In this document: one piece after another, positions 12,610-42,729 of the stretch
Numbering within the stretch: position 1 is the stretch's first letter
Layout of the letters: every line of letters starts with the position of its first letter
Assembly: GCA_041490605.1 (NCBI GenBank)
Contig: JBGPTK010000001.1
Span: 1-46,506, forward strand
Direction: 5' to 3'
Origin: Terriglobia bacterium
Lineage (GTDB): Bacteria; Acidobacteriota; Terriglobia; Acidiferrales; UBA7541
DNA: 46,506 nt
Position numbers and translations under genes: made by a program
The notes under the pieces: generated by a model
The model's input: only the letters and a program-made list of their open reading frames with translations
The model's database searches: none
What the model was told of the DNA's origin: nothing

Positions 12610-12775
12610 TTCATCGCCGCCCACATAAGAGGAATAACTCCCCACCCTTCCCGATCCTGTAGGGCACGCCTTTGGTGTCCCGATGATTTTGATCGAGACG
12701 CCCCTGCTCGCTTCCGCAAAACACATGACCCTCAACCGGGAAAATGCCTGCGCCACCCAGTCCGGGGGATTGGAA

Positions 12776-14098: not shown

Positions 14099-14185
14099 GG
14101 CAGCGAAAATCCGAATTGCTTCGCTTACGTTAGCCAAAGCGGCCCAGGATGTAAAGCAGCGCGATGCTGCTATACTCGTTGCTCG

Positions 14186-14803
14186 ATGAAAAACCGCAAT
14201 GGAAAAACTGTACGAGCGCGAATCGTGGCGCGCGCCAAGCTGCCCACGCGCTTCGGAAAATTCACGATTTTGGGCGTGGAGGGTCGAGCGAAAGAAGAAA
14301 CCGCGGTGGTGCTGGAGCACGGGCGCGTGCGCGGGGCGAAAGCGCCGCTGGTGCGCATCCATTCGCAATGCCTGACCGGGGACATGCTTTTTTCCGAGCG
14401 CTGCGATTGCCGCGGGCAACTCGAACTGGCATTGAAGAAAATTGCCAAGTCTCCGGCGGGATTATTGCTTTATCTGCCGCAGGAAGGCCGCGGAATCGGT
14501 TTGATGAACAAATTGCGCGCGTATGAATTGCAAGATGGCGGAATGGATACGGTGGAAGCGAATCGCAAACTCGGTTTTGCGGATGACTCGCGCGACTACA
14601 GTTTTTCGGCGGAAGCATTGAAGCTTCTGGGCGTGCGCAGCGTGCGGCTGCTTTCGAATAATCCGGACAAGGTGAAGCAACTCGAAGACGCGGGCATTCG
14701 CGTGGTGGAACGAATTCCCTGCCAGCCTCCGGCGGGACGGCTTTCGCGCGCGTATCTTCGAACGAAGAAAGAAAAACTGGGACACATTCTCGCTGACATT
14801 TGA
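14186..14803 (+). CDS. ribA: GTP cyclohydrolase II
   Basis: Last 205 aa of the 706-aa + ORF. Motifs: VRIHSQCLTGDMLFSERCDCRGQL (Zn-binding Cys motif), LPQEGRGIGLMNKLRAYELQDGGMDTVEAN. The upstream 500 aa of that ORF is antisense to the kinase gene. Confidence 0.9.
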   Translation: MKNRNGKTVRARIVARAKLPTRFGKFTILGVEGRAKEETAVVLEHGRVRGAKAPLVRIHSQCLTGDMLFSERCDCRGQLELALKKIAKSPAGLLLYLPQEGRGIGLMNKLRAYELQDGGMDTVEANRKLGFADDSRDYSFSAEALKLLGVRSVRLLSNNPDKVKQLEDAGIRVVERIPCQPPAGRLSRAYLRTKKEKLGHILADI

Positions 14804-18458: not shown

Positions 18459-18488
18459 TTGACCGATGCGCACTCTGGCCGCTATTAT
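18459..18488 (+). promoter_or_regulatory. Sigma70-like promoter of nuo operon 1
   Basis: TTGACC (18459-18464), 18-nt spacer, TATTAT (18483-18488), 17 nt before the nuoA ATG. Confidence 0.5.
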
Positions 18489-18505: not shown

Positions 18506-18880
18506 ATGGACGCAAACTACCTGACGAGTGCGTACGCTCCGTTACTCATCCAGTTTCTGCTGGCGATGGGCCTGGCGGCGATCCTAATCGGGCTTTCGGC
18601 GCTGGTGGGACGCCACAAGTTCTCGCGGGCAAAAATGGCGCCTTACGAATGCGGAATTGAGCCCACGGGGAACGCGCGAGAAGCGTTCCCGGTGCATTTT
18701 TACCTGGTGGGAATGATCTTTATTTTATTCGATATCGAGGCCATTTTCCTGTATCCGTGGGCGCTGATCTACCGGGAGTTGCACTCGTTTGGATTTATCG
18801 AGATGGTGTTGTACATTTTCATCCTGCTGGCGGGCTATATTTACCTTTGGAAGAAGGGCGCTCTGGACTGGAATCGATAG
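18506..18880 (+). CDS. nuoA: NADH-quinone oxidoreductase subunit A (copy 1)
   Basis: 124 aa. YECGIEP...FYLVGMIFILFDIEAIFLYPWA... Confidence 0.93.
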   Translation: MDANYLTSAYAPLLIQFLLAMGLAAILIGLSALVGRHKFSRAKMAPYECGIEPTGNAREAFPVHFYLVGMIFILFDIEAIFLYPWALIYRELHSFGFIEMVLYIFILLAGYIYLWKKGALDWNR

Positions 18881-18904
18881 CGGCCCGCCGAAAGCGACGC
18901 ACCT

Positions 18905-19381
18905 GTGGAACCGCAAGACCTGGCGAACGGCACGGTTGTATCCAAAGTCCGGGCGTGGGACGCTCACGCGATTGCGGAGACGATTGTCTTCCGGAATGAA
19001 TTGACGCTGGTGATCCCGCGGGAGCGGCTGCGAGCGGTGGCGGAATTTCTGCGCGATGATGCGGAACTTCGATTCAACTTACTCTCCGATATTACGGCCA
19101 CGGATCGCTTTCCGATCGAGCCTCGTTTCGACCTGAACTATCAATTGCTCTCTTTGAGCCGGAAAGAACGGCTGCGATTGAAGGTCCATTTGGCCGGGAA
19201 CGACCCCGTGGCGGCTTCGGTGGTATCGGTGTGGCCGGGAGCCAATTGGCACGAGCGGGAAGTGTGGGATCTTTTCGGAATTCGCTTCGAAGGCCACCCG
19301 GACCTGACGCGCATCCTGATGCCGGACGATTGGGAAGGGCACCCGCTGCGGAAGGATTATCCCGTGGAAGGATATCGCTGA
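18905..19381 (+). CDS. nuoC: NADH-quinone oxidoreductase subunit C (copy 1)
   Basis: 158 aa. ANWHEREVWDLFGIRFEGHPDLTRILMPDDWEGHPLRKDY. GTG start 24 nt after the nuoA stop. No nuoB lies in between. Confidence 0.92.
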   Translation: MEPQDLANGTVVSKVRAWDAHAIAETIVFRNELTLVIPRERLRAVAEFLRDDAELRFNLLSDITATDRFPIEPRFDLNYQLLSLSRKERLRLKVHLAGNDPVAASVVSVWPGANWHEREVWDLFGIRFEGHPDLTRILMPDDWEGHPLRKDYPVEGYR

Positions 19382-19410
19382 GAGATGACCGGCGTTAGGA
19401 ACAACGAACT

Positions 19411-20607
19411 GTGACGACCATCGATACCGCCACTGGCGCGGCGCAGACCATGGTGCTGAATATGGGGCCCCAGCACCCGTCCACTCACGGAGTGCTGCGA
19501 GTGGTGCTGGAATTGGACGGCGAAACGGTGGTGAAGGCCCGGCCGGTGATCGGCTATCTGCATACCGGAATTGAAAAGACGGCCGAGGCCAAGACGTATT
19601 CGCAGGTAATTCCGCTGACCGACCGGATCGATTATCTGGCGCCGATGTCGAACAATCTGTGCTACTGCCTGGCGGTGGAAAAACTGCTGGGCCTGGAGGC
19701 GCCGAAGCGCGCGCAATATATCCGCGTGTTGATGACCGAATTGACGCGGATCAATTCGCACCTGGTGTGGGTGGGAACGCATGCGATCGACCTGGGGGCG
19801 ATGTCGGTTTTCCTTTATTGTTTCCGCGAGCGCGAGGAATTACAAAGAATATTCGAATTCGTTTCGGGCCAGCGGATGATGACGAGTTACTTCCGCGTGG
19901 GCGGACTGGCCCTGGAACCGCCGCCGGGATATATCGAGCGCATCGAGAAGTTCCTAAACTATTTCCCCAGCCGGGTGGACGAATACGAAGATTTGCTGAC
20001 GAAAAACCGGATCTGGTGGGGACGCACGAAAGGCATCGGAATCCTGAGCGCGGAAGACGCGATTTCCATGGGCGTTACCGGACCGATGCTGCGGGCCAGC
20101 GGCGTGGCTTACGACATCCGCAAGTATTTCCCCTATTCCAGCTATGAGGAATTCGATTTCGCGGTGCCGACGCGAACGGAAGGGGATGTCTACGCGCGCT
20201 ATCTGGTGCGGGTGGCGGAGATGCGCGAGAGCGTGAAAATCTGCCGGCAGGCGATCAAGAAGATTCCGGCGGAAGGGCCGATTCGAGCGGAAGCGCCGGG
20301 AATCATACCTCCAGCCCGCGAAGAGATGAAAACTTCGATCGAAGGGCTGATTTATCATTTCAAGATTTTCACGGAGGGATTCGCGCCGCCGCCGGGCGAA
20401 GTGTACCAGGCGATCGAATCGCCGCGGGGCGAATTGGGTTTCTTCGTGGCCAGCGACGGCTCCGCGCATCCGCACCGCGTACACGTGCGCGCACCTTCTT
20501 TCGTGAACCTGCAATCCCTGCCGCAACTGGTGGAAGGCCGGCTGATCGCCGACGTGGTCGCCTGCATCGGCACGACGGACATCGTGCTGGGCGAGGTGGA
20601 CCGCTGA
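19411..20607 (+). CDS. nuoD: NADH-quinone oxidoreductase subunit D (copy 1)
   Basis: 398 aa. [25 protein letters not shown]-terminal DIVLGEVDR. Confidence 0.95.
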   Translation: MTTIDTATGAAQTMVLNMGPQHPSTHGVLRVVLELDGETVVKARPVIGYLHTGIEKTAEAKTYSQVIPLTDRIDYLAPMSNNLCYCLAVEKLLGLEAPKRAQYIRVLMTELTRINSHLVWVGTHAIDLGAMSVFLYCFREREELQRIFEFVSGQRMMTSYFRVGGLALEPPPGYIERIEKFLNYFPSRVDEYEDLLTKNRIWWGRTKGIGILSAEDAISMGVTGPMLRASGVAYDIRKYFPYSSYEEFDFAVPTRTEGDVYARYLVRVAEMRESVKICRQAIKKIPAEGPIRAEAPGIIPPAREEMKTSIEGLIYHFKIFTEGFAPPPGEVYQAIESPRGELGFFVASDGSAHPHRVHVRAPSFVNLQSLPQLVEGRLIADVVACIGTTDIVLGEVDR

Positions 20608-22421
20608 TGCAGCTTCCGAAGCAACTCGAGGAAAAATTCACACAACTGCTCGGCCGCTATCCGGTGAAGCGCTCGGCGCTGATCCCGATGATGCTTTACG
20701 CGCAGGATACCCTGGGCCATCTGGGCGACCCGATCCTGGAGGAAATCGCGCGGCGCCTGGACCTGAAAGTTTTAGAGGTGACGGAAACCCTGGCGTATTA
20801 CTCGATGCTGCATCGCAAGCCGATGGGGAAACATCACGTGCAAATCTGCACCAACGTTTCCTGCATGCTGCGCGGCGGGCAAGAAATGTACGAGTATGTC
20901 CAGAAGAAGATGGGCATCGGCAACAAGCAGGTGACGCCGGACGGAAACTTTTCGCTGGAAGAGGTGGAATGCATCGGCGCGTGCACCGGCGCGCCGGCGT
21001 TGCAAGTGAATTACGATTATTACGAGAACTTGTCGCCGGAGCGAGTGGACAGGGTTTTGGATGATCTGGCGCGCGGCGGCAAGCCCACGCCTTCGGCCTG
21101 CACAGCGGGCGCGGTTCATGAGCGGCATCCGGCCGAGGTGCCGGTGATCAGCCGGCTGTTCGGGATCAAAGGTTCGCATACGATCGGCGTCTACCGGGAT
21201 CACGAGGGCTACCGAGCAACGGAAAAAGCCCTGACGCAAATGACGCCGGAGCAAATTATCGAGGAGCTGAAGAAATCGAATCTGCGCGGGCGCGGGGGCG
21301 CGGGCTTCCCTACAGGAATGAAGTGGAGCTTCGTGCCCAAGGACATTCCGAAGCCGAAATACATCCTGGCGAACTGCGACGAAAGCGAGCCGGGCACTTG
21401 TAAAGACCGGCCGCTGATGGAATTTGAGCCGCATCAATTGATCGAAGGAATGATCATCGCGGGGCGCGCGGTGGGCTCGACGCGCGGTTACGCGTATATT
21501 CGCGGGGAATACCGCTACGTGCTGGACATTGTGGACCGGGCGATCGAGGAAGCCTACGCCGCGGGATACCTGGGAAAGAATATTCTGGGCAGCGGCGTGG
21601 ATTTCGATCTTTCGACGCACACGGGCGCGGGGGCCTACGAGTGCGGCGAGGAATCCGCGTTGATGGAATCGCTGGAAGGCAAGCGCGGCTACCCGCGCAT
21701 CCGGCCGCCGTTTCCGGCTGTCATCGGCCTCTACGGCTGCCCGACGGTGATCAACAATGCGGAGACTCTGATGTCCGTGCCGCCCGTGATTCTGCGCGGA
21801 GGCGAATGGTACGCGGGCCTGGGGACGCCGAAAAACGGCGGCACGCGATTATTCTGTATTTCGGGGCATGTGAATCGCCCGGGGATTTATGAATTGCCGA
21901 TGGGCTTCAACCTGAAGCGGATGATTGAAGAGGTCGCGGGCGGCATGCTGGACGGCAAGAAATTGAAGGCCGTGATTCCCGGTGGAAGTTCGTGCCCGCT
22001 TCTGACGGCCGCGGAAGTGGACCTGCCGATGGATTTTGATTCGCTGGCGAAAGCGGGTTCCATGCTGGGGTCGGGCGGTCTGGTGGTGATCGACGAAGAC
22101 ACCTGCATGGTGGACCTGGCGCGGCGGATCATGCACTTCTACGCGCACGAATCCTGCGGCTGGTGCATTCCCTGCCGCGAGGGCACGGCCTGGCTGCGGT
22201 CGATTCTGGACCGCTTCCACGACGGCGGCGGGCGCAGCGAAGATATTCCCATGATCGACGAGCTTGCGAAAAACATGCTGGGACGGACGTTTTGCCCGCT
22301 GGGAGACGCGGCGGCATTGCCGACGATCAGCATCGTGAAGAAATGGCGGAACGAATTCGAAGACCACCTGCACGGCAAGTGCGCGTACAAGCAGGCCAGC
22401 GTGTTGACGGCCAGGCGATAA
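20607..22421 (+). CDS. Fused NADH-quinone oxidoreductase subunits E and F
   Basis: Single 604-aa ORF. The N-terminal ~165 aa is NuoE-like (CTNVSCMLRGG...ECIGACTGAP, 2Fe-2S Cys). The rest is NuoF (GRGGAGFPTGMKWSF, ANCDESEPGTCKDR, ESCGWCIPCREG). Its ATG overlaps the nuoD stop. Confidence 0.9.
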   Translation: MQLPKQLEEKFTQLLGRYPVKRSALIPMMLYAQDTLGHLGDPILEEIARRLDLKVLEVTETLAYYSMLHRKPMGKHHVQICTNVSCMLRGGQEMYEYVQKKMGIGNKQVTPDGNFSLEEVECIGACTGAPALQVNYDYYENLSPERVDRVLDDLARGGKPTPSACTAGAVHERHPAEVPVISRLFGIKGSHTIGVYRDHEGYRATEKALTQMTPEQIIEELKKSNLRGRGGAGFPTGMKWSFVPKDIPKPKYILANCDESEPGTCKDRPLMEFEPHQLIEGMIIAGRAVGSTRGYAYIRGEYRYVLDIVDRAIEEAYAAGYLGKNILGSGVDFDLSTHTGAGAYECGEESALMESLEGKRGYPRIRPPFPAVIGLYGCPTVINNAETLMSVPPVILRGGEWYAGLGTPKNGGTRLFCISGHVNRPGIYELPMGFNLKRMIEEVAGGMLDGKKLKAVIPGGSSCPLLTAAEVDLPMDFDSLAKAGSMLGSGGLVVIDEDTCMVDLARRIMHFYAHESCGWCIPCREGTAWLRSILDRFHDGGGRSEDIPMIDELAKNMLGRTFCPLGDAAALPTISIVKKWRNEFEDHLHGKCAYKQASVLTARR

Positions 22422-22427
22422 GGATTC

Positions 22428-24707
22428 ATGGCGGAACAAAAGCTGATTACGTTCACGATTGACGAGCACAAGATGACTGTGCCGGCCGGGACGCTGGTGA
22501 TCGAAGCGGCCAAGAAGCTCAGCATCGAGGTGCCGTCGTTCTGCTATTACCCGGGCCTCTCGTTGCAGGCGGCGTGCCGCTTGTGCCTGGTGGAAGTGGA
22601 AAAAGCGCCCAAGCTGCAGACCGCATGCACGCTGGTGGCGGTGGAAGGGATGGTGGTGCGCACCACCACTCCGCAGGTGCACGGCGCGCGCAAGAATATG
22701 CTGGAATTCCTGCTGACCAACCATCCACTGGATTGCCCGGTGTGCGACAAGGGCGGCGAATGCGAATTGCAGGACATGACGTTCCGCTACGGGCTCGATC
22801 ACAGCCGGTTCGTCGAGGAAAAGCTGCACTCGCCCGAGGAATCGTGGTCGCCGCTGGTTTATTACGACGCGCCGCGGTGCATTTTGTGCTTTCGGTGCGT
22901 GCGCGTGTGCGATGAGGGCATGGACGTGAAGGCGCTGGGAGTGGGAGCGCGCGGCGTGCATTCGGTGATCCTGCCGAACAAGCAGGGCGGGCTGAACTGC
23001 GAAGAATGCGGCATGTGCATTGACATTTGCCCGGTGGGAGCGCTGACCAGCGGAACCTACCGCTACCAGACGCGGCCGTGGGAAATGCAGTATGTGCCCA
23101 CGCCTTGCGTGCATTGCTCGAACGGCTGCAAGACGACCCTGAGCGTGCGCAACAATGAAATCATCCGCGCAAATAATCGCGATCATTCGGGAGTGAACGG
23201 CGAATTCCTGTGCGGCAAGGGGCGATTCGGCTTCGATTTTACGAAGCATCCGGAGAGGATTCGCCAGCCGTTGATCCGCCGGAACGGAAAACTGGAGCCG
23301 GCAAGCTGGGAAGTCGCGCTGGAAGAAATATCGCGGCGGCTGAAGCAAGTCCACCAGAAGAACGGCGCGGAAGCCATTGGCGTGATCGGCTCGAACCGCA
23401 CCTCGAATGAAGAGAATTATTTGCTGAACCGATTTGCGCGAATATCCCTGGGCACGAATAACCTGGATCATCACCGGACCGCGGATTATGCGGGACTGAT
23501 TGCCGCGCTGGGGCCGAATGCGGCCGGCGCAATGGCCACCATGGCGCAAATTGATTCGGCGAATGCGATTCTGCTGATCGGAAACGATCCGACGCAGCAG
23601 AATCCGCTGGTGGCATGGCAGATTCGCTCGGCGGTGCGCCATCATGGCGCGCGGCTCTATAGCATCCATTCGCAGCCGATCAAGCTGCATCGGCAATCGG
23701 CGCAATTTGTGGAAATAGCCAAGGGCGCGGAGCCGATGGTGGCGCGGTGGCTGGCCACCGGCAACGCGGAACTTGACGGCAGCGTGGTGGAAAAACTGGG
23801 GAATCTGAAAGCGGCGTTGGAAAAGGAAGCGGATTTGGTGATCCTGTTCGGCGCGGGATTGGCCGGCACTGCCATTCGCGACCTGATGGCGTTCGCTTCG
23901 TCGCTATCGGGTGAAATTCGCTGCATGGCCCTGAGCGATTACATCAATTCGCGCGGCGCGGCTGATATGGGCGTTTTTCCGGACCGGCTGCCGGGTTACG
24001 CGCCGCTGAGCGATGCGGGCGAGCGCAAGCGATTCGGGAAACTGTGGGGCGGCGAGATTTCCGCGAAGCCGGGAATGAACGCGCGGCAGATGATGGACGC
24101 GGCTGTGGGAGGAAAGCTGAAGGCGCTGTACGTGATCGGCGCGAATCCGGTGAAAACATTTGAAGTGAAGAAGCCGGACCGCCTGTCGGGACTCGATCTG
24201 CTGGTGGTTCACGAAATGTTTTTGACGGAAACCGCGCAACGGGCCGACGTGGTTCTGCCCGCCGCCTGCGCCTATGAAAAAGACGGCTCGGTGACGAATA
24301 CTGCGGGCGAAGTGCAAATGACGCACCGGGCGCTGGACCCGCAAGGACCGCGCAGCGACTACGATTTGCTGCGGATTCTTTCGCATCAACTGGCACAGCT
24401 CGGAATGGGTTCGGCGATTCCCTTGCGCACGCCGGAAGCGGCGCTGGATGAAATCCGGCAGCACGTGCGCGGCTACCGCGTGCCGATCACCGGCCTGCTG
24501 ACGGGCGGCGCGGAACAGGCCACACCGACGCTGCCTTCGGCGGATGCGTCGTACGACGTGCCCGCGGGACTGGTTTTTTCGACCGTAGATAATTTGTTCA
24601 CGAGTGGAACCCTGGGGCGTTACTGTTCGAAGCTCAATACCTGCGAAGAGGCCAAAGAGACACCGTGGAGTTCGTCGCCCAGCATCCAGTCCTGGTGGTA
24701 TCGGTAA
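22428..24707 (+). CDS. nuoG: NADH-quinone oxidoreductase subunit G (copy 1)
   Basis: 759 aa. CRLCLVEV, HPLDCPVCDKGGECELQD, CILCFRCVRVC, CGMCIDICPVGAL, then a molybdopterin-oxidoreductase-like domain. Confidence 0.94.
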   Translation: MAEQKLITFTIDEHKMTVPAGTLVIEAAKKLSIEVPSFCYYPGLSLQAACRLCLVEVEKAPKLQTACTLVAVEGMVVRTTTPQVHGARKNMLEFLLTNHPLDCPVCDKGGECELQDMTFRYGLDHSRFVEEKLHSPEESWSPLVYYDAPRCILCFRCVRVCDEGMDVKALGVGARGVHSVILPNKQGGLNCEECGMCIDICPVGALTSGTYRYQTRPWEMQYVPTPCVHCSNGCKTTLSVRNNEIIRANNRDHSGVNGEFLCGKGRFGFDFTKHPERIRQPLIRRNGKLEPASWEVALEEISRRLKQVHQKNGAEAIGVIGSNRTSNEENYLLNRFARISLGTNNLDHHRTADYAGLIAALGPNAAGAMATMAQIDSANAILLIGNDPTQQNPLVAWQIRSAVRHHGARLYSIHSQPIKLHRQSAQFVEIAKGAEPMVARWLATGNAELDGSVVEKLGNLKAALEKEADLVILFGAGLAGTAIRDLMAFASSLSGEIRCMALSDYINSRGAADMGVFPDRLPGYAPLSDAGERKRFGKLWGGEISAKPGMNARQMMDAAVGGKLKALYVIGANPVKTFEVKKPDRLSGLDLLVVHEMFLTETAQRADVVLPAACAYEKDGSVTNTAGEVQMTHRALDPQGPRSDYDLLRILSHQLAQLGMGSAIPLRTPEAALDEIRQHVRGYRVPITGLLTGGAEQATPTLPSADASYDVPAGLVFSTVDNLFTSGTLGRYCSKLNTCEEAKETPWSSSPSIQSWWYR

Positions 24708-25870
24708 TCAAGATTGCCGTCCTGCTGCTCCTGACGCTGACGGCGCTTGCGTACCTCACCTGGTTTGAACGAAAGGTCATCGCGCACATCCAGTCGCGAT
24801 GGGGGCCGTACTTTGTGGGCCCGCACGGATTGCTGCAGCCGTTGGCGGATGGAGTGAAATTCCTTTTCAAGGAAGATGTGATTCCTCCGGCTTCGGACAA
24901 GTTTATTTACTTGTTGGCGCCGTTTCTGGCGCTGTCGCTGGCGCTGACGACGCTGGCGCTGATTCCCATCGGTCCCACGACCATTCACATTCTGGGCTAT
25001 CCGACGCAGTTGGTGATCGCGAATTCGGATATTGGACTGCTGTTTCTTTTCGCCATCACGTCGATTGGGGTGTACGGAGTTGCGCTGGCGGGATGGTCGT
25101 CGAACAGCAAGTATTCGCTGCTGGGCGGGCTGCGCAGCTCGGCGCAGATGATCAGTTATGAAGTGGCGCTGACAGTATCCGTGGTGGGCGTGCTGCTGCT
25201 CTCCGGCACATTTAATTTGAGCCAGTTGGTGGAAAGCCAGCAAGGACGTTACTGGCACTGGATTCCGCGGTGGCACATCATCCCGCAAATTGTGGGATTC
25301 TTTTGTTATTTCGTCGCGGCCATTGCGGAGACCAATCGCGTGCCGTTTGACTTGCCGGAAGCGGAAACCGAACTGGTGGCGGGATTCCACACGGAATATT
25401 CGAGTTTCAAATTCGCCATGTTCTTCATGGCCGAGTACGCGAACATGATTACGGTCTCGTGCCTGGCGACCATTCTGTTCCTGGGTGGGTGGCTATCGCC
25501 GCTATCAGCTTCGTGGCAGTGGACGCACTACATTCCGGGCGCGGTATTTGTGATTGGCGGCGTGGCGCTGCTGCAAGATACGGTGCGGAAGCTGCGCGGG
25601 CTGCATCGCGTGGTGCTGAGCGTGGTCTGCGTGGCGATCGTGGCAATTGGATATGGGTGCCTGCAGGCGTGGGTGATCCCGGTGATTGAAGGGCCGTTCT
25701 GGTTCCTGTTCAAGGTCTTCCTGATTCTGTTCTTCTATGTTTGGGCGCGCGGCACGCTTCCCCGCTTCCGGTACGACCAGTTGATGAATTTCGGATGGAA
25801 ATTGCTGCTGCCGGTGGCGATTGCAAACCTGGTGGTGACGGCGTTTATCGTGATGGTGCTGAACCGATGA
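24665..25870 (+). CDS. nuoH: NADH-quinone oxidoreductase subunit H (copy 1)
   Basis: [55 protein letters not shown]. The GTG 24665 start overlaps nuoG by 43 nt. GTG 24695 is an alternative. Confidence 0.92.
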   Translation: MEFVAQHPVLVVSVIKIAVLLLLTLTALAYLTWFERKVIAHIQSRWGPYFVGPHGLLQPLADGVKFLFKEDVIPPASDKFIYLLAPFLALSLALTTLALIPIGPTTIHILGYPTQLVIANSDIGLLFLFAITSIGVYGVALAGWSSNSKYSLLGGLRSSAQMISYEVALTVSVVGVLLLSGTFNLSQLVESQQGRYWHWIPRWHIIPQIVGFFCYFVAAIAETNRVPFDLPEAETELVAGFHTEYSSFKFAMFFMAEYANMITVSCLATILFLGGWLSPLSASWQWTHYIPGAVFVIGGVALLQDTVRKLRGLHRVVLSVVCVAIVAIGYGCLQAWVIPVIEGPFWFLFKVFLILFFYVWARGTLPRFRYDQLMNFGWKLLLPVAIANLVVTAFIVMVLNR

Positions 25871-26361
25871 GCGTGGAATTGATTTTGTTTTTCGCGTGCG
25901 CGATTCTGGCCGTTGCGGGCGGAGTAATGCTGATTTTTCTGCGCGAGCCGATTCACAGCGCGCTGTCGCTGATCCTGGTGATGATTTCCCTGGCGGTGCT
26001 TTACCTGCTTCTGGGCGCCGAATTCATTGCCGCGATTCAGATCATCGTGTATGCGGGCGCGATCATGGTGCTATTTGTGTTCGTGATCATGCTGCTGAAT
26101 GCGGGCGAAGAAGAGCGCACTAACTTCAGCCGGATCGCGAAATTTGCCGGCGTGCCGTTGGGAATTTTTTTGACGCTCGAGCTGGCATGGGTGATCCACG
26201 GCGCTATTGGAAAGATGCTGGCCGCTCCATCCGGAGCGGTTTCGACGCGGGAACTTTCCCTGCTGCTTTTCCAGACGTATGTTTTCCCGTTTGAAGCGAC
26301 GTCGATTTTGATTTTGATCGCGATTTTGGGGGCCGTGGTGCTGGCCAAGAGGGATTTCTAA
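25867..26361 (+). CDS. nuoJ: NADH-quinone oxidoreductase subunit J (copy 1)
   Basis: [23 protein letters not shown]...[28 protein letters not shown] overlap with the nuoH stop. No nuoI lies between H and J. Confidence 0.92.
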
Positions 26362-26362
26362 A

Positions 26363-26665
26363 GTGGTTCCCATCTCCTACTACCTGATTTTGAGCGCGAT
26401 TTTGTTCGGGCTGGGAGTGCTGGCGTTTGTATTCAAACGCAACATCATCACGATTTTCATGTCCATCGAGCTGATGCTGAACGCGGTGAATCTTGCGTTC
26501 GTGGCGTTCAGCCGGATGCTGGGTCAGTTGGATGGGCAGGTGTTCGTGTTTTTTGTGATTGTGGTGGCGGCGGCGGAGGCCGCTGTGGGGCTCGCGATCA
26601 TCATCCAGATCGCGCGCAACCGGCAGACGCTGAACGTGGAACGCGTGAATACGCTCAAGCTCTAA
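26363..26665 (+). CDS. nuoK: NADH-quinone oxidoreductase subunit K (copy 1)
   Basis: 100 aa. [18 protein letters not shown]...[12 protein letters not shown]. Confidence 0.94.
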
Positions 26666-28704
26666 TGTTTATCCTGAAACATCTGTGGATCATTCTGGCG
26701 CTGCCGTTCACCGGCTCGGCGGTCAACTTTATATTTGGCCGGAAATGGCCGAAGAAGGCGGTCGATTCGGTTGGGATTGGCTCGGTGTCGCTGACGTTTC
26801 TTGCGGTGCTGGAGGCGGTGCGCGAATTCTTGCAGCTCGGCGCGAACCAGATTCCGTGGGTGAAGAATTATTACACCTGGATTACGGCGGGAAATTTCCG
26901 CGTCAATTTCGAACTGCAAGTGGACCAGTTAACCGTGGTGATGATGCTGGTGGTGGCGGGCGTTGGCCTCTTGATCCACATTTATTCCAGCGGGTACATG
27001 GCGCACGAGGGCGGCTACTACCGCTTTTTCGCGGAAATCAATCTGTTCATGTTCTTCATGCTGACGCTGGTGATGGCGGCGAACCTGGTGCTGATGTTCG
27101 TGGGCTGGGAAGGGGTGGGGCTGTGCAGCTACTTGCTGATCGGATTTTATTTCCGCAAGAAAAGCGCGGCGGATGCGGGCAAGAAGGCGTTTATCACCAC
27201 GCGCATCGGCGACCTGGGATTCATGCTGGGAATTTTCCTGACGTTCTGGACATTTGGGTCGATCGATTACGCCGCGATTTTCCGGCAAGCGGCGCAGATG
27301 CCGATCGAGAAGGCCGCGCCCTACGGCGTGCTGACGTCAATCTGCCTGTTGCTGTTCGCGGGGGCGGTGGGCAAATCGGCGCAGCTTCCTCTTTATGTGT
27401 GGCTGCCGGACGCGATGGAAGGGCCGACGCCGGTGAGCGCGCTGATTCACGCGGCGACGATGGTGACGGCGGGCGTCTACATGGTGGCGCGGATGCATGT
27501 TTTTTATTCGAAGGCGCCGGCGGCGATGCTGGTGGTGGCAACAATTGGCGCTCTCACCGCGTTTTATGCGGCGACGATTGGGCTGGTGCAGACGGACATC
27601 AAGAAAGTGCTGGCGTATTCGACGATTTCGCAGCTCGGTTACATGTTCCTGGGCTGCGGAGTGGGAGCTTACGCCGCTGGAATTTTTCATTTGATGACGC
27701 ACGCCTTTTTCAAGGGGCTGCTGTTTCTGGCGGCCGGCAGCGTGATTCATGCCATGGGCGGCCAGCAGGACATGCGCGAGATGGGCGGCCTGCGAAGGAA
27801 GATTCCCTGGACGTATTGGACGATGTTCGCGGCGACACTGGCGATCGCGGGCATTCCGGGATTTTCGGGATTTTTCAGCAAAGATGAAATTCTGGAAGCC
27901 GCGCAATCAGGGCCGAACGCGAATACCTGGCTGTGGGTGCTGGGAATCTTGGGTGCATTGCTGACGTCGTTTTATATGTTCCGGCTGCTGTTTCTGACGT
28001 TTTTTGGGAAGGCGCGTTACGACGAGCGCAAAGTGCACGTTCACGAATCGCCGGCAAATATGCTGGCGCCGCTGGTGATTCTGGCGGTGCTGGCGGTGGG
28101 CGGCGGATGGGTTGCCGCGCCGCGGCTGGTGGGCGGTGTGGATCATTTCGAGCACTTCCTGGCGCCGGTGTTCCACCCTCGGACGGGCGGAACGCTCAGC
28201 GCTGTTATCGGGGCATCTCCGGAAGAAGTTGCGCGGCAGATGGATGAGGCCAAGGCAAAGGCTTTGACCGCAGAGGCCGCGGAGAAAGAGGAGGAGCACG
28301 CTGAGCAGCCGGGCTTGGCCGGGTCGCTGTTGGGAATTCCTGTGATCGTCGCGTTGATTGGACTGGCCACGGCGTGGTGGTTCTATATCAAGAGCCCGCA
28401 GACGCCGAAGAACCTGGCGAAATCGCTGAGCGGGCCGTACAAACTTCTGCTCAACAAATATTACGTGGATGAGATTTACGGATTCCTGATCGTGCGCCCG
28501 CTGCTGTGGATTTCGGCGAACGTGCTGTGGCATGGGGTGGATGAAGGCGCGATCGACGGCGCAGTGAACGGAGTGGCGAGCGCGGCGCGAGAAGTGGGCG
28601 GACGGGTGCGCCACTTGCAATCGGGCAACACGCGAAGTTACGCCACGTGGGTGGTGATCGGCGCGGTGGCGTTTACCACTTTCTTCTTGTGGATGGTGCG
28701 GTAG
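26665..28704 (+). CDS. nuoL: NADH-quinone oxidoreductase subunit L (copy 1)
   Basis: 679 aa. GWEGVGLCSYLLIGF, WLPDAMEGPTPVSALIHAATMVTAG, HAFFKGLLFL. Confidence 0.95.
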   Translation: MFILKHLWIILALPFTGSAVNFIFGRKWPKKAVDSVGIGSVSLTFLAVLEAVREFLQLGANQIPWVKNYYTWITAGNFRVNFELQVDQLTVVMMLVVAGVGLLIHIYSSGYMAHEGGYYRFFAEINLFMFFMLTLVMAANLVLMFVGWEGVGLCSYLLIGFYFRKKSAADAGKKAFITTRIGDLGFMLGIFLTFWTFGSIDYAAIFRQAAQMPIEKAAPYGVLTSICLLLFAGAVGKSAQLPLYVWLPDAMEGPTPVSALIHAATMVTAGVYMVARMHVFYSKAPAAMLVVATIGALTAFYAATIGLVQTDIKKVLAYSTISQLGYMFLGCGVGAYAAGIFHLMTHAFFKGLLFLAAGSVIHAMGGQQDMREMGGLRRKIPWTYWTMFAATLAIAGIPGFSGFFSKDEILEAAQSGPNANTWLWVLGILGALLTSFYMFRLLFLTFFGKARYDERKVHVHESPANMLAPLVILAVLAVGGGWVAAPRLVGGVDHFEHFLAPVFHPRTGGTLSAVIGASPEEVARQMDEAKAKALTAEAAEKEEEHAEQPGLAGSLLGIPVIVALIGLATAWWFYIKSPQTPKNLAKSLSGPYKLLLNKYYVDEIYGFLIVRPLLWISANVLWHGVDEGAIDGAVNGVASAAREVGGRVRHLQSGNTRSYATWVVIGAVAFTTFFLWMVR

Positions 28705-28708
28705 CCGA

Positions 28709-30334
28709 ATGGGCCAAAATCATTTGTTATCGGTGCTGATCTTCCTGCCGCTGGTGGGGTCGCTGGCGGTGTTGCTGCTGGGGCGCGACGATCACGAGTG
28801 GGTGCGGCGGCTGGCGCTGGCCACATCAATCGCCGAATTCGTGATTTCGCTGTTCCTGCTGCGTGGATTCGACATGGGCTCGGGGGCCTACCAGCTCGAA
28901 GAATTTCACCGCTGGATCAGTTCGCCGCCGATCCACTACCACCTGGGAATCGACGGGATCAGCCTGTTCCTGGTGCTGCTCTCGACGTTCCTGACGCCGT
29001 TCGCGATTCTGTGCTCTTGGACGAGCATCCACGTGCGGGTGAAGGAATTCTTCATCATGCTGCTGGTACTGGAGACGGGCATGATCGGCGTGTTCGTGGC
29101 GCTGGACCTGTTTCTTTTCTTCTTGTTCTGGGAAGTGATGCTGCTGCCGATGTATTTCCTGATCGGCATCTGGGGCCACGACCGGAAAATTTACGCGGCG
29201 CTGAAATTTATTTTGTACACGATGGCCGGGTCGATTCTGATGCTGGTGGCGATCGTTTGGCTGTACGGGCTGACCGGGTCGTTCGATCTGCCGGAAATCC
29301 AGATGAAGCTGCAGAGGAGCATCGTGATGCTGCCGGCGGGCACGGAATTGCTGCTCTTCGGGGCGTTCTTCCTGGCGTTCGCGATCAAGGTGCCGATCTT
29401 CCCGGTGCACACCTGGCTGCCGGACGCGCACACGGAAGCGCCGACGGCGGGCTCCGTGATTCTGGCTGGCGTGCTGCTGAAAATGGGGACGTACGGCATG
29501 CTGCGCTTCTGCCTGCCGCTGTTTCCGGATGCGGCGCACCGGATGGCGCCGTATATCGCCGTGCTGGCGATCATCGGGATTATTTATGGCGCGCTGGTGG
29601 CGACGGTGCAGCACGATTTGAAACGGCTGGTGGCTTACACGTCGATCAGCCACCTGGGCTTCGTAGTGCTGGGCATTTTCGCGTTCAGTAATATTTCGAT
29701 TCAGGGCGCGATCTATCAGATGCTGAGCCATGGCATTTCGACCGGCGGGCTGTTCCTGGCGGTGGGAATGCTTTATGACCGGCGGCACACGCACGAAATC
29801 AAGGAATTCGGTGGGCTGGCGACGCCGATGCCGGTCTTCGCTTCCCTGTTTTTGTTCATCTGTTTTTCATCGCTGGCGCTGCCGCTGCTGAATGGATTCG
29901 TGGGCGAATTTTTGATTTTGACGGGCACGTGGCAACGCCATGCAAGCTGGGCGGCATGGGCGGCCACTGGTTCGATCTTGTCCGCGGTTTATTTGTTGTG
30001 GGCTTACCAGCGAGTGGTGTGGGGTGAAGTGACGGTGGAGAAAAATAAGACCTTGCCCGATGCGTCGACTCGCGAGCGTCTGATCCTGGCGCTGATTTGC
30101 CTGCTGGCGCTGTTCATGGGCGTGGCCTCGCCGCTCTTCACGCGGCGTATGGAAGCTACCAGCCAGAATCTGCTGCAACAGATGCAACGCAACCGCGCTT
30201 ACGATGCCCGCGGCGCCGCTCCCGCGGGGATGCCGGAACATTGCGACATGCCTGCGATGGCTGCCGCGCCAGCGCTGGCGTCCGCGCAGGTTGCTCGGCA
30301 CGATTCCGTTCCGGAAAGGCGGGCACAGAACTAA
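28709..30334 (+). CDS. nuoM: NADH-quinone oxidoreductase subunit M (copy 1)
   Basis: 541 aa. WLPDAHTEAPTAGSVILAGVLLKMGTYG, AYTSISHLGFV. Confidence 0.95.
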   Translation: MGQNHLLSVLIFLPLVGSLAVLLLGRDDHEWVRRLALATSIAEFVISLFLLRGFDMGSGAYQLEEFHRWISSPPIHYHLGIDGISLFLVLLSTFLTPFAILCSWTSIHVRVKEFFIMLLVLETGMIGVFVALDLFLFFLFWEVMLLPMYFLIGIWGHDRKIYAALKFILYTMAGSILMLVAIVWLYGLTGSFDLPEIQMKLQRSIVMLPAGTELLLFGAFFLAFAIKVPIFPVHTWLPDAHTEAPTAGSVILAGVLLKMGTYGMLRFCLPLFPDAAHRMAPYIAVLAIIGIIYGALVATVQHDLKRLVAYTSISHLGFVVLGIFAFSNISIQGAIYQMLSHGISTGGLFLAVGMLYDRRHTHEIKEFGGLATPMPVFASLFLFICFSSLALPLLNGFVGEFLILTGTWQRHASWAAWAATGSILSAVYLLWAYQRVVWGEVTVEKNKTLPDASTRERLILALICLLALFMGVASPLFTRRMEATSQNLLQQMQRNRAYDARGAAPAGMPEHCDMPAMAAAPALASAQVARHDSVPERRAQN

Positions 30335-31819
30335 ATGCGCCCACCGATCGAAGACGTATTCCGCCTGGCTCCCGAAATCGTCCTGTGCTTCACCGGCATT
30401 TTGATCATGCTGGTGGACCCCTTTGTTTCCGCAAAAAATAAGAAGTTCATGGGCTGGGTGGGATTTGCAGGAGCGGTTGTGGCGCTGGCTTCGATTTTCG
30501 AAGCCGCGCGGCATCAGGGAGCGGCTTATGGCGGGCTGATCCTGACGGACCACTTCAGCCTGTACATGCACGCGGTGGTGATTGGCGCGGCCGCGTTGGC
30601 GATTCTTGGATCGTTCACTTACCTGGAACGCGAAAAGCTGGTGCGGGGCGAATATTATTCGCTGATTTTGTTTGCCACCGCGGGAATGGGAATTCTGTGC
30701 GGCGCGGGCGAACTGGTGACTGCCTTTATCGGGCTGGAGATGAGCTCGATTTCGAGCTATATCCTGGCGGGCTTCCGGCGCGACGCGATCAAGTCCAATG
30801 AAGCCTCGCTGAAATATTTTCTGCTGGGTTCGTTCGCGACGGCGTTTTTTTTGTATGGCACGGCGATGGTGTATGGCGCCACGGGAACCACGCGATTCGA
30901 GGGAATCGAGAACGCGGTTGCCCGGCCGGGAGCGGGGACGCTGCTGGTTTTGGGCCTGGTGCTGCTGTTCGCCGGCCTGGGATTCAAAATTGTAGCCGCG
31001 CCGTTCCAGATTTACGCGCCGGACGTTTACGAAGGCGCGCCGACGCCGGTGTCGGCCTTGCTGGCTTCCGGGCCGAAGGCTGCGACGTTCGCAGTGATGC
31101 TGCGGATTTTTTATGTGGCGTTTGGAGGTTCGAACAGCATCTGGTATTGGGCGATTTGGATTGCCGCGGTGCTTTCGATGTGCGTGGGAAATTTTGGGGC
31201 GCTGGTGCAGACGAACGTGAAGCGCATGCTGGCGTATTCTTCGATCGCGCACGCGGGCTACATCCTGGTGGCATTCGCGGCCAGCACGAAGCTGGGAATC
31301 GCGGCGGTTTTATTCTACCTGGCGGCCTACGCGCTGATGAAGCTGGGGGCGTTCGTGGCGGTGGCGCACCTGGGCGGCGCGGGCGAAAAGCGATTGGATA
31401 TCAAGGATTATGCGGGCCTTTCGACACAGCAGCCGTGGCTGGCGGCTTGCTTCGCGCTGTTCCTGTTTTCTCTGCTCGGAATTCCCGGGACTGGAGGATT
31501 CTTAGGCAAATTTTATGCATTCCAGGCGCCACTTCTTGCCGCGCGGGAAGTGACGGCGATGGCGTCGCCCCACGTGGCCAGTTCCCTGGTGTGGCTGGTG
31601 ATCATCGCTGCGCTCAACAGCGTGGTGGGGGCGTATTACTATTTGCGCGTGATCGTCTCCATGTATTTCTGGGAGGCGCAGAAGGAATTTGCGCCGCTGG
31701 AAGTGAGCCCTTCGGTTACGTTTGTGTTGATGATCGCCGCTGCCGGAACCATTTATCTGGGCCTGTTCCCGAACCAGGTGATGAGCTTCGCGCAGCTCTC
31801 CGCGCTTTCGCTACACTAG
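30335..31819 (+). CDS. nuoN: NADH-quinone oxidoreductase subunit N (copy 1)
   Basis: 494 aa. APFQIYAPDVYEGAPTPVSA, MLAYSSIAHAGYIL. Confidence 0.95.
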   Translation: MRPPIEDVFRLAPEIVLCFTGILIMLVDPFVSAKNKKFMGWVGFAGAVVALASIFEAARHQGAAYGGLILTDHFSLYMHAVVIGAAALAILGSFTYLEREKLVRGEYYSLILFATAGMGILCGAGELVTAFIGLEMSSISSYILAGFRRDAIKSNEASLKYFLLGSFATAFFLYGTAMVYGATGTTRFEGIENAVARPGAGTLLVLGLVLLFAGLGFKIVAAPFQIYAPDVYEGAPTPVSALLASGPKAATFAVMLRIFYVAFGGSNSIWYWAIWIAAVLSMCVGNFGALVQTNVKRMLAYSSIAHAGYILVAFAASTKLGIAAVLFYLAAYALMKLGAFVAVAHLGGAGEKRLDIKDYAGLSTQQPWLAACFALFLFSLLGIPGTGGFLGKFYAFQAPLLAAREVTAMASPHVASSLVWLVIIAALNSVVGAYYYLRVIVSMYFWEAQKEFAPLEVSPSVTFVLMIAAAGTIYLGLFPNQVMSFAQLSALSLH

Positions 31820-31857: not shown

Positions 31858-31933
31858 GGGCTTCAGGGTCTAAAGCCCTTTTTTTTTGCTAGAGCCTATG
31901 TCGGAGCTAAAGCTCCGACCCGTTAAAAACCCA
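31858..31933. repeat. REP-like double-hairpin element, family 1
   Basis: GGGCTTcagggtctAAAGCCCttttttttt...atGTCGGAGCtaaaGCTCCGACccgttaaaaaccc. Same layout as 17376-17445. Confidence 0.6.
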
Positions 31934-31976: not shown

Positions 31977-32011
31977 AAGGCCCGGAACTCGCTTTGCGAA
32001 TTCCGGGCCTT
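31977..32011. terminator. Bidirectional intrinsic-terminator-like hairpin between the convergent nuoN (copy 1) and atpE
   Basis: AAGGCCCGGAA ctcgctttgcga ATTCCGGGCCTT. It is followed by TTGAATTTTA on the + strand and by TTCTGTTTTC on the - strand. Confidence 0.6.
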
Positions 32012-34086: not shown

Positions 34087-35556
34087 TCAGCGGCCCAAAA
34101 CGCCGAGAGAATATTGCGCGAATTCGATGAACGGGTTGGGGTAGATGCCGGCGGCGAGCGTGACGATCCCCATGGCGGCGAGTGCGACTGCCTGCCCCAG
34201 CGACACGCGAGGTATGAAAGAATCCGTGGAATCGCGCACCCACATGGCCGCGACGATCCGGAAGTAATAATACACCGCCGGGAGAATATAGAGCACGGCG
34301 AGGATCGCCAGGACGTAGTGCTGCGTTTCCATCAGCGCCCAGAAGATCAGCAGCTTGCCGATGAAACCGGCCGTGGGCGGAATTCCGGCGAGCGAAAGCA
34401 GGAAAATCAGCATCAACATCGCGGCGCCCGGATTGCGCTGGAATAATCCATTCATATCGTCGAGTTCGTCGCCGATCACTCCCTTGCGGCGCAAGACGAT
34501 CACCACGGCGAACGCGCCGGTATTGAAGAAGGCGTAGACGAGAATGTAGAACGTCATGGCCTCCAGGCCCAGAGTATTGCCCGCCACCAGGCCCAGCAGG
34601 ATATATCCCACATGCGAAATCGAGGAGTAGGCGAGCAGGCGCTTGATATTGGACTCGGTGATGGCCGCGATGTTGCCGAGGGTCATCGAAAGCACGGCGA
34701 CGGCGGCGATCAGCATGGTCCAATCCACGCGGATGGGCCAGAAGACGGTAAGGAACAGGCGCAGCAGCAGCGCGAAGCTCGCGGCCTTGGACGCCACGCT
34801 GACAAACGCGGTGATGGGAGTGGGCGCGCCTTCGTAAACGTCCGGCGCCCACTGGTGGAACGGCACAGCGGCGATTTTGAAGAAGACGCCGGCGGCGACG
34901 GTGACCAGCGCGAGGATCACCAGCACGTCGCTGGGGGGGCGATGGGCTACTTCCGCGCGAATCACGTCCAGATTCGTGGAGCCGGAGATTCCATAGAGCA
35001 GCGAAAAGCCGTAGGCGAGGATGGCCGAACTGAAGGCGCCGAGCAGAAGATACTTCAGCGCGCCTTCATTCGAGCGCCGGTCGTTGCGCAGGAATCCGGT
35101 GAGGATGTAAAAGCTGATGGCCATCGTTTCGAGACCGATGAAGAGCACGATGAGGTCGGTGCCGCAGGCGAGGAACATCATGCCGATCGTCGCGAACAGC
35201 ATTAGCGCGTAATATTCGGCGTGGTGCTCTTTTTCGATTTCCAGGTAGCGCACGGAAAGCAGGATCACCAGCGCGGCCGCAGCCAGGAAGACGAAGCCGA
35301 AGAAAATGAAAAACGGGTCGATGACGATCGAATTGTTGAATCCCTTTACACCGTTGGCCGGAACGTAACGGAGCATGTAGAGGGAAATGCCGCTGAAAAT
35401 TACTCCCAACATGGCGGTGAGCGCGTTCACCCACTTTTCACGCTCTTCCAAGAGAAAATCGATCAGCAACACGCCCATGCCGAAGAAAGCAAGCTGCACT
35501 TCCGGCAGGATCAGGTGAAACTGTTGCCGAGTTTGTTGGAAGAGTTCTTGCCACAT
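34087..35556 (-). CDS. nuoN: NADH-quinone oxidoreductase subunit N (copy 2)
   Basis: 489 aa. VPFHQWAPDVYEGAPTPITAF, LLAYSSISHVGYIL. Confidence 0.94.
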   Translation of the reverse strand: MWQELFQQTRQQFHLILPEVQLAFFGMGVLLIDFLLEEREKWVNALTAMLGVIFSGISLYMLRYVPANGVKGFNNSIVIDPFFIFFGFVFLAAAALVILLSVRYLEIEKEHHAEYYALMLFATIGMMFLACGTDLIVLFIGLETMAISFYILTGFLRNDRRSNEGALKYLLLGAFSSAILAYGFSLLYGISGSTNLDVIRAEVAHRPPSDVLVILALVTVAAGVFFKIAAVPFHQWAPDVYEGAPTPITAFVSVASKAASFALLLRLFLTVFWPIRVDWTMLIAAVAVLSMTLGNIAAITESNIKRLLAYSSISHVGYILLGLVAGNTLGLEAMTFYILVYAFFNTGAFAVVIVLRRKGVIGDELDDMNGLFQRNPGAAMLMLIFLLSLAGIPPTAGFIGKLLIFWALMETQHYVLAILAVLYILPAVYYYFRIVAAMWVRDSTDSFIPRVSLGQAVALAAMGIVTLAAGIYPNPFIEFAQYSLGVLGR

Positions 35557-35565
35557 GGGCGGTGT

Positions 35566-37137
35566 CTACCTGCTCTCCGGGGTCTGCGCCGCGGCCGGAG
35601 CTGGAACCTGAGCCGGCGGAGCAGGCGGTTGCGATGTGTAATAGCCCGGATTCACTTTCTCGACGAGCTGGCGCACGGGAGCGTCGAGCACGCGGAAGAG
35701 CGGCTTGGGATAAATGCCAATCCAGAAGGCGAGCAGGATCAGCGGGGCCAGGGTGGCCCATTCGCGCAGATTCATGTCGGGCAAGTGCTCATTGGCCGGG
35801 TTGGTCACGCTGCCGAACATGACGCGCTGGTAGAGCCACAGCAGGTAAGCCGCGCCCAGAATTACGCCAGTGACGCCGAAGGCCGCCCAGGTCAAGCCGT
35901 AGCGCGGGACTTCAAACGTGCCGCGAAGAATGGTGAACTCACCGATGAATCCATTCAGCAGCGGCATGCCCAGCGAACTGAGGGTGACGATCATATAAAC
36001 CACCGCGAAATTCGGCATCGGCGTGGAAAGCCCGCCAAACTCCGAAATCAATCGGGTGTGCCGCCGTTCGTATAACACGCCCACCAGCAGGAAGAGCGCG
36101 CCCGTGGAGATGCCGTGATTGAGCTGCTGAATGATGCTGCCGGAGAGTCCCAGCGGGGTGAGCGCGAAAATTCCCAGGGTGCAGAAACCCATGTGGCTGA
36201 CCGAGGAATAGGCGATCAGTTTCTTCATGTCTTTCTGCATCATGCAGACCAGCGCGCCATAAATGATGGCGATGATGGAAAGAACCATCATGATTCCGCG
36301 GAACTGATTGGTGGCATCGGGGAACATGGGCACCGAAAAACGCAGGAATCCATACGTTCCCATTTTCAGCAGGACGCCGGCCAGGATGACGGAACCGGCC
36401 GTGGGCGCTTCGGTGTGCGCGTCGGGCAGCCAGGTGTGGAACGGAACCATGGGCACCTTGATCGCGAAGGCGAAAAAGAAACCCCAGAAGAGCCAGCGCT
36501 GCAATTGCAGTGGAAAGAAATCGTGCGGCGCGGAGAGCACGGTGCGGATATCGAAAGTGTGCGCGTTGAAATAAATCGCCAGAATGGCCAGGAGCATCAC
36601 CACCGAGCCGGCCAGGGTGAACAGGAAAAATTTGATGGCGGCGTAGAGACGGCGCTCGCTGCCCCACACTCCGATCAGAAAGTACATGGGGACCAGCATC
36701 ACTTCCCAGAAAACGTAGAACAAAACGAAATCGAGCGAGGTGAAGACGCCCAGCATGCCGGTCTGCAGCAGAAGAAGGAGAATGTAGTATTCCTTCTCGC
36801 GTTTTTGAATCGCGCTCCACGAGGAGAGAATAGCGATCGCCCCGAGCACGGTGGTGAGAATGACCATCACCAAGCCCAGACCGTCGATGCCCAGCGTATA
36901 GTGCGCGCCGATGGTGGGAATCCAATCGTGGTCTTCGACGAACTGGAAGCCCGTCTGGCCGGCCTGGAACCGGCAAATGAGCGGCAGCGAAACGAGGAGG
37001 CCCAGGAAGCCGAAGAGGTTCCCCATCCAGCGGTGCGCCGCGGCGTTGCTGCGCGGAATAAACAGCATCAGAATCGCGCCCGCCAGCGGCGTGAAGAGCA
37101 CGGTGCTCAATATGTGCTGATTATCGAAAAGCATCAT
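35566..37137 (-). CDS. nuoM: NADH-quinone oxidoreductase subunit M (copy 2)
   Basis: 523 aa. WLPDAHTEAPTAGSVILAGVLLKMGTYG, AYSSVSHMGF. Confidence 0.94.
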   Translation of the reverse strand: MMLFDNQHILSTVLFTPLAGAILMLFIPRSNAAAHRWMGNLFGFLGLLVSLPLICRFQAGQTGFQFVEDHDWIPTIGAHYTLGIDGLGLVMVILTTVLGAIAILSSWSAIQKREKEYYILLLLLQTGMLGVFTSLDFVLFYVFWEVMLVPMYFLIGVWGSERRLYAAIKFFLFTLAGSVVMLLAILAIYFNAHTFDIRTVLSAPHDFFPLQLQRWLFWGFFFAFAIKVPMVPFHTWLPDAHTEAPTAGSVILAGVLLKMGTYGFLRFSVPMFPDATNQFRGIMMVLSIIAIIYGALVCMMQKDMKKLIAYSSVSHMGFCTLGIFALTPLGLSGSIIQQLNHGISTGALFLLVGVLYERRHTRLISEFGGLSTPMPNFAVVYMIVTLSSLGMPLLNGFIGEFTILRGTFEVPRYGLTWAAFGVTGVILGAAYLLWLYQRVMFGSVTNPANEHLPDMNLREWATLAPLILLAFWIGIYPKPLFRVLDAPVRQLVEKVNPGYYTSQPPAPPAQVPAPAAAQTPESR

Positions 37138-37210
37138 CCGTTCTTCCTCGCTTACTCAGAATCCTGTGCCGAGCGCCCGGAAACTTCGCGGAACCGTCAA
37201 TGACCCGCAA

Positions 37211-39247: not shown

Positions 39248-39270
39248 TCCCTCTCGCTCAACACTTGCCC

Positions 39271-39386: not shown

Positions 39387-39393
39387 CATGCGG

Positions 39394-39696: not shown

Positions 39697-39698
39697 CC

Positions 39699-42726: not shown

Positions 42727-42729
42727 GTT

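Follow-up and report, generated by a model that had tools for sequence, protein, structure and literature searches.

A Terriglobia complex I operon without nuoB and nuoI matches the split layout documented for its lineage

The 46,506-nucleotide (nt) stretch of DNA analyzed here in full (the window; contig JBGPTK010000001.1 of a Terriglobia bacterium) carries on its plus strand, at 18506-31819, a cluster of complex I genes from which nuoB and nuoI are missing. The cluster is a split complex I set and not a complete Nuo14 cluster. In all probability it is an ordinary, intact complex I (NADH:quinone oxidoreductase) operon of a soil member of the Terriglobia near Candidatus (Ca.) Acidiferrales, showing the split typical of that lineage, with nuoB and nuoI lying unlinked elsewhere in the chromosome. 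The layout has already been documented for the lineage, albeit in passing; it is true but not novel, and is not a new kind of system. NuoB carries cluster N2, while NuoI carries clusters N6a and N6b, and together they connect the quinone site with the NuoG chain.

Results

Scanning all six frames of the 46.5 kb for motifs revealed no open reading frame (ORF) combining the NuoB hallmarks CCxxE, GxCxxxGG and CPP. Motifs of the form CxxCxxCxxxC(P) occurred inside genes only in NuoG, with one further match outside genes that was followed immediately by a stop codon. For tblastn searches we used Thermus thermophilus Nqo6 (NuoB) and Nqo9 (NuoI), identical to chains 6 and 9 of PDB entry 2FUG. Nqo6 gave no NuoB match anywhere in the window at E ≤ 10, and no NuoB match was obtained at E ≤ 1 when the window was searched with acidobacterial stand-alone NuoB and the NuoI of a metagenomic locus, L128, as seeds. 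The only NuoI-like tblastn matches in the window were weak ones, to the ferredoxin domain of NuoG. The motif scan and tblastn therefore agree with each other, and with the first-pass annotation, which had noted neither an ORF with NuoB hallmarks nor a stand-alone NuoI.

At the canonical site of nuoB, the nuoA stop codon (TAG) ends at 18880 and the GTG start codon of nuoC lies at 18905, leaving a spacer of exactly 24 nt (18881-18904, plus strand). At the canonical site of nuoI, the nuoH stop and the nuoJ start overlap in the sequence ATGA (25867-25870, plus strand). Both junctions had been pointed out previously, and both were recovered by direct reading. The remaining junctions of the operon, which we term operon 1, range from -43 to +29 nt and, because all of them are tight, no unassigned ORF fits inside the operon as a replacement subunit.

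Related loci were obtained by a scan with NuoEF, taking one genome per GTDB species, which yielded 80 loci with 60-80% NuoEF identity. Nearly all of their titles refer to Acidobacteriota or one of its subgroups (Ca. Acidiferrales/Acidoferrum, Terriglobia, Bryobacterales, Solibacteraceae), about seven metagenome-assembled genomes (MAGs) being labelled with other phyla, and they include independent assemblies with contigs of 0.5-2.6 Mb. Wherever sequence was available, the gene order A-C-D-E(F)-G-H-J-K-L-M-N was found (80/80), and no NuoB- or NuoI-like ORF or tblastn match lay within 10 kb on either side of any of the 80 loci. The gap between nuoA and nuoC was at most 179 nt long in 75 relatives (median about 27 nt), and the -4 nt overlap of nuoH and nuoJ seen in the window was present in about 46 of 64 loci. 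Fusion of nuoE and nuoF was seen in the window and in Acidiferrales-type loci (L002-L066), these being separate genes in Bryobacterales-type loci (L067-L081).

When aligned to the 49-kDa subunits in PDB, NuoD of operon 1 (NuoD1) was found to keep the histidine and tyrosine of the quinone site (QHPSTHG, DRIDY). A consensus scan placed a sigma-70-like promoter of operon 1, TTGACC-18 nt-TATTAT, at 18459-18488 on the plus strand (10/12 matches). Among 73 related loci, the region preceding nuoA contained the -35 word ATTTGACC in 47 cases and the -10 word TATTATAG in 27. The promoter-like pair CATTTGACCG ... CTATTATAGC is strongly conserved upstream of nuoA, both in the window (18459-18488) and in loci L002-L081; with its end about 18 nt from the nuoA start codon, it implies a very short leader. 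An identical layout in all 80 relatives, at 60-80% protein identity, requires long-term purifying selection, and the conservation of layout, junctions, promoter words and NuoD residues rules out misassembly, frameshift and recent decay. The first-pass annotation had taken the tight junctions to argue against recent decay, and this argument gains from the recurrence of the same order and junctions, without nuoB and nuoI, in 80/80 relatives and from the retention of the NuoD histidine and tyrosine.

To locate nuoB in the phylum, a metagenome scan was performed with an alignment of four NuoB sequences, and returned 80 nuoB loci. Fifty of these were flanked by nuoA and/or nuoC, 28 had no nuo neighbor, and two had a truncated or uninformative context. 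In a neighbor-joining tree, 26 of the 28 unlinked nuoB genes formed a single clade, with a core identity of at least 78% (mean about 85%), versus about 70% to operon-borne NuoB. These stand-alone proteins contain the CC pair and the motifs GACATSGG and GCPPRPE, and exceed the NuoB cut-offs of both NF005012 (257 bits versus 116) and TIGR01957 (240 bits versus 143). A profile built from them retrieved thousands of relatives, and the sole organism name among the matches listed was Acidobacteriaceae bacterium. Thus, nuoB exists as a stand-alone gene in Acidobacteriota, an observation that concerns the phylum rather than the genome from which the window comes.

The stand-alone gene was found in two recurrent types of neighborhood. 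In the first, represented by contig DASYYO010000009.1 of an Acidobacteriaceae bacterium MAG, nuoB has a divergent glnD-glnK-amtB block on one side and genes for OmpA-like, BNR/sortilin-like and GNAT proteins on the other, with intergenic flanks of 200-490 nt that separate it from its divergent neighbors. The second type places it next to an alcohol-dehydrogenase-like gene, with genes for an NHL/lactonase-like protein and a GHMP kinase on its other side. Loci of the glnD-glnK-amtB type (L162-L167, L174, L177-L183) also lie near genes resembling those for menaquinone synthesis by the futalosine pathway, i.e., a CofH_C radical-SAM gene and, in L167, VitK2_biosynth genes. No upstream k-mer common to nuoA and stand-alone nuoB, which would have been a sign of co-regulation, was found, and scans for promoters and terminators around stand-alone nuoB were uninformative.

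A search for Nqo6 homologues returned only Deinococcota, and no Acidobacteria, among the 120 matches listed, and no NuoB was found in the viral contigs scanned. A NuoI profile search matched Actinobacteria, Chloroflexota, Deinococcota and a further lineage with a stand-alone nuoB-nuoI bicistron (L128, 1545-2633; L170, 9438-10477; L171-L173, 9438-10510), in which the two genes touch, overlap or are 3 nt apart, and the surrounding neighborhoods are unrelated. We also observed metagenomic operons with the order A-B-C-D-E-F-H-J-K-L-M-N, lacking nuoG and nuoI (L120, 1517-12405; L130, 9431-20282); two stand-alone nuoB loci, L084 and L091, cluster with this group.

Assignments of the eleven packed genes of operon 1 were made with Pfam and NCBIfam models, which bore out the order nuoA-C-D-EF-G-H-J-K-L-M-N given in the first-pass annotation. 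All eleven match Nuo families over their full length with intact reading frames, and for NuoD, EF, G, L, M and N the scores exceed the curated cut-offs of NCBIfam. The operon, all on the plus strand, starts with nuoA (18506-18880; 124 amino acids (aa); PF00507, E = 1e-36; NCBIfam NuoA models) and nuoC (18905-19381; 158 aa, GTG start; PF00329, E = 6.5e-50; TIGR01961, 149 bits, above its cut-off), followed by nuoD (19411-20607; 398 aa; TIGR01962, 584 bits versus a cut-off of 459). The fused nuoE-nuoF gene (20607-22421; 604 aa) encodes PF01257, PF01512, SLBB and PF10589 domains, and its product scores 615 bits on TIGR01959 and 153 bits on TIGR01958, each above the respective cut-off. Next is nuoG (22428-24707; 759 aa; TIGR01973, 491 bits versus 470), with Fer2_4, NADH-G_4Fe-4S_3, Fer4_Nqo3 and Molybdopterin domains. 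The N-module subunits E, F and G are therefore present with their FMN/NADH and iron-sulfur (Fe-S) domains.

The membrane-arm subunits A, H, J, K, L, M and N are likewise present at full length. Downstream of nuoG lie nuoH (24665-25870; 401 aa; PF00146, E = 4.7e-122), nuoJ (25867-26361; 164 aa; PF00499 and NCBIfam NuoJ models) and nuoK (26363-26665; 100 aa; PF00420, E = 4.7e-30), and then the genes for the three antiporter-like subunits, nuoL (26665-28704; 679 aa; NF005141, 774 bits versus 556), nuoM (28709-30334; 541 aa; TIGR01972, 606 bits versus 264) and nuoN (30335-31819; 494 aa; TIGR01770, 418 bits versus 333). After nuoN, consensus scans detected a terminator-like hairpin with a T-run (31865-31887, plus strand) and, downstream of it, a 16-bp hairpin (31977-32011). 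No part of the window matched an Rfam family.

NuoH of operon 1 (NuoH1) contains an insertion of about 60 aa between transmembrane helices 7 and 8, at residues ~281-344, where alignments to PDB structures break. Two hydrophobic stretches, which may be additional transmembrane helices, make up the insertion, and it was found in 56 of 64 aligned NuoH sequences. A connection between this insertion and the missing nuoI was considered and rejected, because nuoB and nuoI are also missing from eight Bryobacterales-type loci whose NuoH has no insertion.

A second nuo operon, with the order A-C-D-H-J-K-L-M-N, was identified with the same models on the minus strand at 34087-44047, tail-to-tail with operon 1. 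It lacks nuoE, F and G as well as nuoB and nuoI, neither motif scan nor tblastn revealing a NuoB or NuoI within it. Its genes are nuoA (43664-44047), nuoC (42730-43449), nuoD (41584-42726), nuoH (40215-41549), nuoJ (39699-40214), nuoK (within 39394-39933), nuoL (37211-39247), nuoM (35566-37137) and nuoN (34087-35556), all on the minus strand; the junction between nuoH and nuoJ is seamless. Subunits D, H, A and C of operon 2 share only 40-54% identity with their paralogues in operon 1. Alignment to solved 49-kDa subunits showed that NuoD2 also keeps the quinone-site histidine and tyrosine, the latter in a motif that reads DR(I/M)DY across NuoD1 and NuoD2. NuoH2 (40215-41549) also has an insertion between transmembrane helices 7 and 8, longer than that in NuoH1.

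Two places in operon 2 were considered as possible remnants of nuoB. NuoC2 (42730-43449, minus strand) has a low-complexity, Pro/Ala-rich N-terminal extension of about 75 aa, which was rejected as a candidate because hhalign against NuoB returned a probability of 0.1%; it is a Pro/Ala-rich linker instead. The 214-nt spacer between nuoA and nuoC was also rejected, as it holds a small repeat and not a gene remnant. This repeat, of about 125 nt, occurs on the minus strand in two spacers of operon 2, i.e., between nuoK and nuoL (39248-39393) and between nuoA and nuoC (43450-43663). Similarity between the copies is about 80%; they contain an internal hairpin with compensatory changes, and a core 20-mer occurs twice versus an expectation of 0.03. 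The repeat had no Rfam match, and no exact copy of it was present among the fetched loci.

We also considered whether the two operons might encode complexes of the group 4 [NiFe]-hydrogenase type (Ech, Mbh, Hyf). This was rejected, because NuoD1 and NuoD2 score 350-390 bits on Complex1_49kDa, whereas on NiFeSe_Hases NuoD2 scores only 24 bits and NuoD1 has no Pfam match. The antiporter-like L, M and N subunits and the presence of NuoEFG also oppose that identity.

Elsewhere in the window, two tandem double-Usp proteins adjoin a baeRF-family (release-factor-like) protein (245-4633), and a 706-aa protein (12683-14803) has a GTP cyclohydrolase II domain at its C-terminus only, after about 500 unannotated residues.

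Discussion

The cluster can be compared with several known systems. Canonical nuo operons (nuoA-N in Escherichia coli; nqo7-6-5-4-2-1-3-8-9-10-11-12-13-14 in T. thermophilus) contain the same families in the same relative order, with the same quinone-site and cofactor domains; the operon in the window differs in lacking nuoB at the A-C position and nuoI at the H-J position. Dispersal of complex I genes over separate loci is also a feature of the NDH-1 of cyanobacteria and chloroplasts and of mitochondrial complex I, where subunits from separate loci assemble normally. In mitochondria, the genes for the NuoB and NuoI homologues (NDUFS7 and NDUFS8) do not even share a genome with that for ND1. 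The pattern of dispersal is different, however: in cyanobacteria ndhK, the equivalent of nuoB, lies with ndhC and ndhJ, and ndhI lies with ndhA, whereas in the acidobacterial window it is exactly nuoB and nuoI that are detached. Genes for Fe-S subunits are also detached in the other metagenomic splits described above, i.e., the nuoB-nuoI bicistron (L128, L170-L173) and the operons of L120 and L130, but these come from other lineages and involve a different set of genes.

The closest precedent is a set of nuoACD(EFG)HJKLMN operons in MAGs from Acidobacteria subdivisions 1 and 3, in which nuoB and nuoI are listed on scaffolds apart from the operons (Hausmann et al., 2018, ISME J 12:1729, supplementary text and Table S2b). 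They have the same gene order as operon 1, the same two genes missing, and nuoB and nuoI elsewhere in the genome, and one genome carries an EFG-containing and an EFG-less operon together, as does the window. According to Table S2b, SbA1 has three nuoB and two nuoI genes away from three nuoA/C/D sets, while SbA5 has one operon with its own nuoB and nuoI, one without, and an extra nuoB and nuoI elsewhere. The window differs from these operons in coming from another order (Ca. Acidiferrales-like), in its nuoE-nuoF fusion and in the hydrophobic insertion in NuoH. A 2025 survey (PMC12361115) reported that most Acidobacteriota have complete complex I gene sets, with "split" arrangements being common. 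The first-pass annotation had allowed that the split might be the standard, already documented layout of the lineage and, judging by the survey of 80 relatives and by Hausmann et al. (2018), this is the case. Its proposal that NuoB and NuoI are supplied in trans is supported by the stand-alone acidobacterial nuoB genes and by the scaffolds in Table S2b. Its suggestion of a single separate nuoB/nuoI locus did not hold for Terriglobia, in which the two genes are listed on different scaffolds; the bicistron was seen in another lineage only.

Three explanations that would deny the operon an external supply of NuoB and NuoI receive very little credence from us. That the operon is a decaying, non-functional remnant left after loss of nuoB and nuoI is highly improbable: two essential genes are indeed missing from the cluster, but the frames are intact, the catalytic residues and promoter are conserved, and the arrangement is identical in 80/80 relatives. 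An assembly error or frameshift hiding the two genes, which the first-pass annotation had kept in view, is less credible still. We found no evidence in its support, and it is contradicted by the lengths of the junctions (only 24 nt between nuoA and nuoC, and a 4-nt overlap of nuoH and nuoJ), by the lack of any NuoB- or NuoI-like coding signal in any frame of the window, and by the presence of the same structure in 80 independent assemblies, contigs of 0.5-2.6 Mb among them. A complex that works without NuoB and NuoI, or with non-homologous replacements, might be suggested by the absence of both genes from the 10 kb on either side of the operon in every relative. This too we regard as next to impossible, because the operon has no unassigned ORFs, NuoD keeps the residues that work with cluster N2, genuine stand-alone nuoB genes are abundant in the phylum, and the published MAGs list both nuoB and nuoI.

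A different question is how the detached genes would be shared between the two operons. It is unlikely, in our view, that they encode an exchangeable, separately regulated Fe-S connector that is shared or swapped between the NADH-linked complex of operon 1 and the EFG-less complex of operon 2. If this were true, the amount and type of active complex I would be set via two small monocistronic genes, with iron, sulfur or oxygen as possible cues. We are slightly more doubtful that one nuoB and one nuoI, both unlinked, form a common pool serving both the EFG-containing and the EFG-less complexes, with the Fe-S connector exchangeable and separately regulated. Such a pool would be in line with the lack of nuoB and nuoI in both operons, and the long intergenic flanks of stand-alone nuoB (~200-490 nt) fit independent transcription. 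However, the copy numbers in Table S2b of Hausmann et al. (2018) roughly track the operons (three A/C/D sets, three nuoB and two nuoI in SbA1; two operons, two nuoB and two nuoI in SbA5). In addition, stand-alone nuoB occurs in at least two conserved neighborhoods and in sub-clades, which fits paralogues, and the low identity (only 40-54%) of subunits D, H, A and C between the operons favors co-evolved partners. Given the copy numbers in Table S2b and the presence of stand-alone nuoB in two conserved neighborhoods, we favor a dedicated NuoB/NuoI paralogue for each operon, rather than a shared pool, as the probable arrangement.

Returning to the ordinary split operon, 12 of the 14 core subunits would be co-transcribed from the conserved promoter, as 11 genes owing to the E-F fusion, so that operon 1 would provide NuoC and NuoD together with the membrane arm and the NADH module. 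Separate transcripts would give rise to NuoB and NuoI, which would enter the complex post-translationally, during assembly, presumably as in organisms with dispersed complex I genes such as cyanobacteria or in mitochondria. The genome from which the window comes would then also carry unlinked nuoB and nuoI genes. Several points weigh against this interpretation. The nuoB and nuoI genes of this genome were not seen, the window apparently representing nearly the whole contig, and an exact look-up of the sequence yielded a single duplicate contig of 1.7 kb. Our NuoI profile search returned no recognizable Terriglobia NuoI, and the evidence for unlinked nuoI in Terriglobia comes from the literature. 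The occurrence of a stand-alone nuoB and an operon lacking nuoB in one MAG is likewise taken from the published table, a comparison of our nuoB contigs with the 80 genome loci having revealed no assembly common to both, and the near 1:1 ratio of nuoB copies to operons is derived from draft MAGs.

The split layout raises questions that are modest and physiological: why is it exactly the two Fe-S subunits bridging NuoG to the quinone site that have become detached, and does each operon have a dedicated NuoB/NuoI paralogue? Its main relevance is to annotation: where complex I is scored by the completeness of an operon, a pipeline would call these abundant soil bacteria "nuo-partial", when the phylum carries nuoB and nuoI elsewhere.

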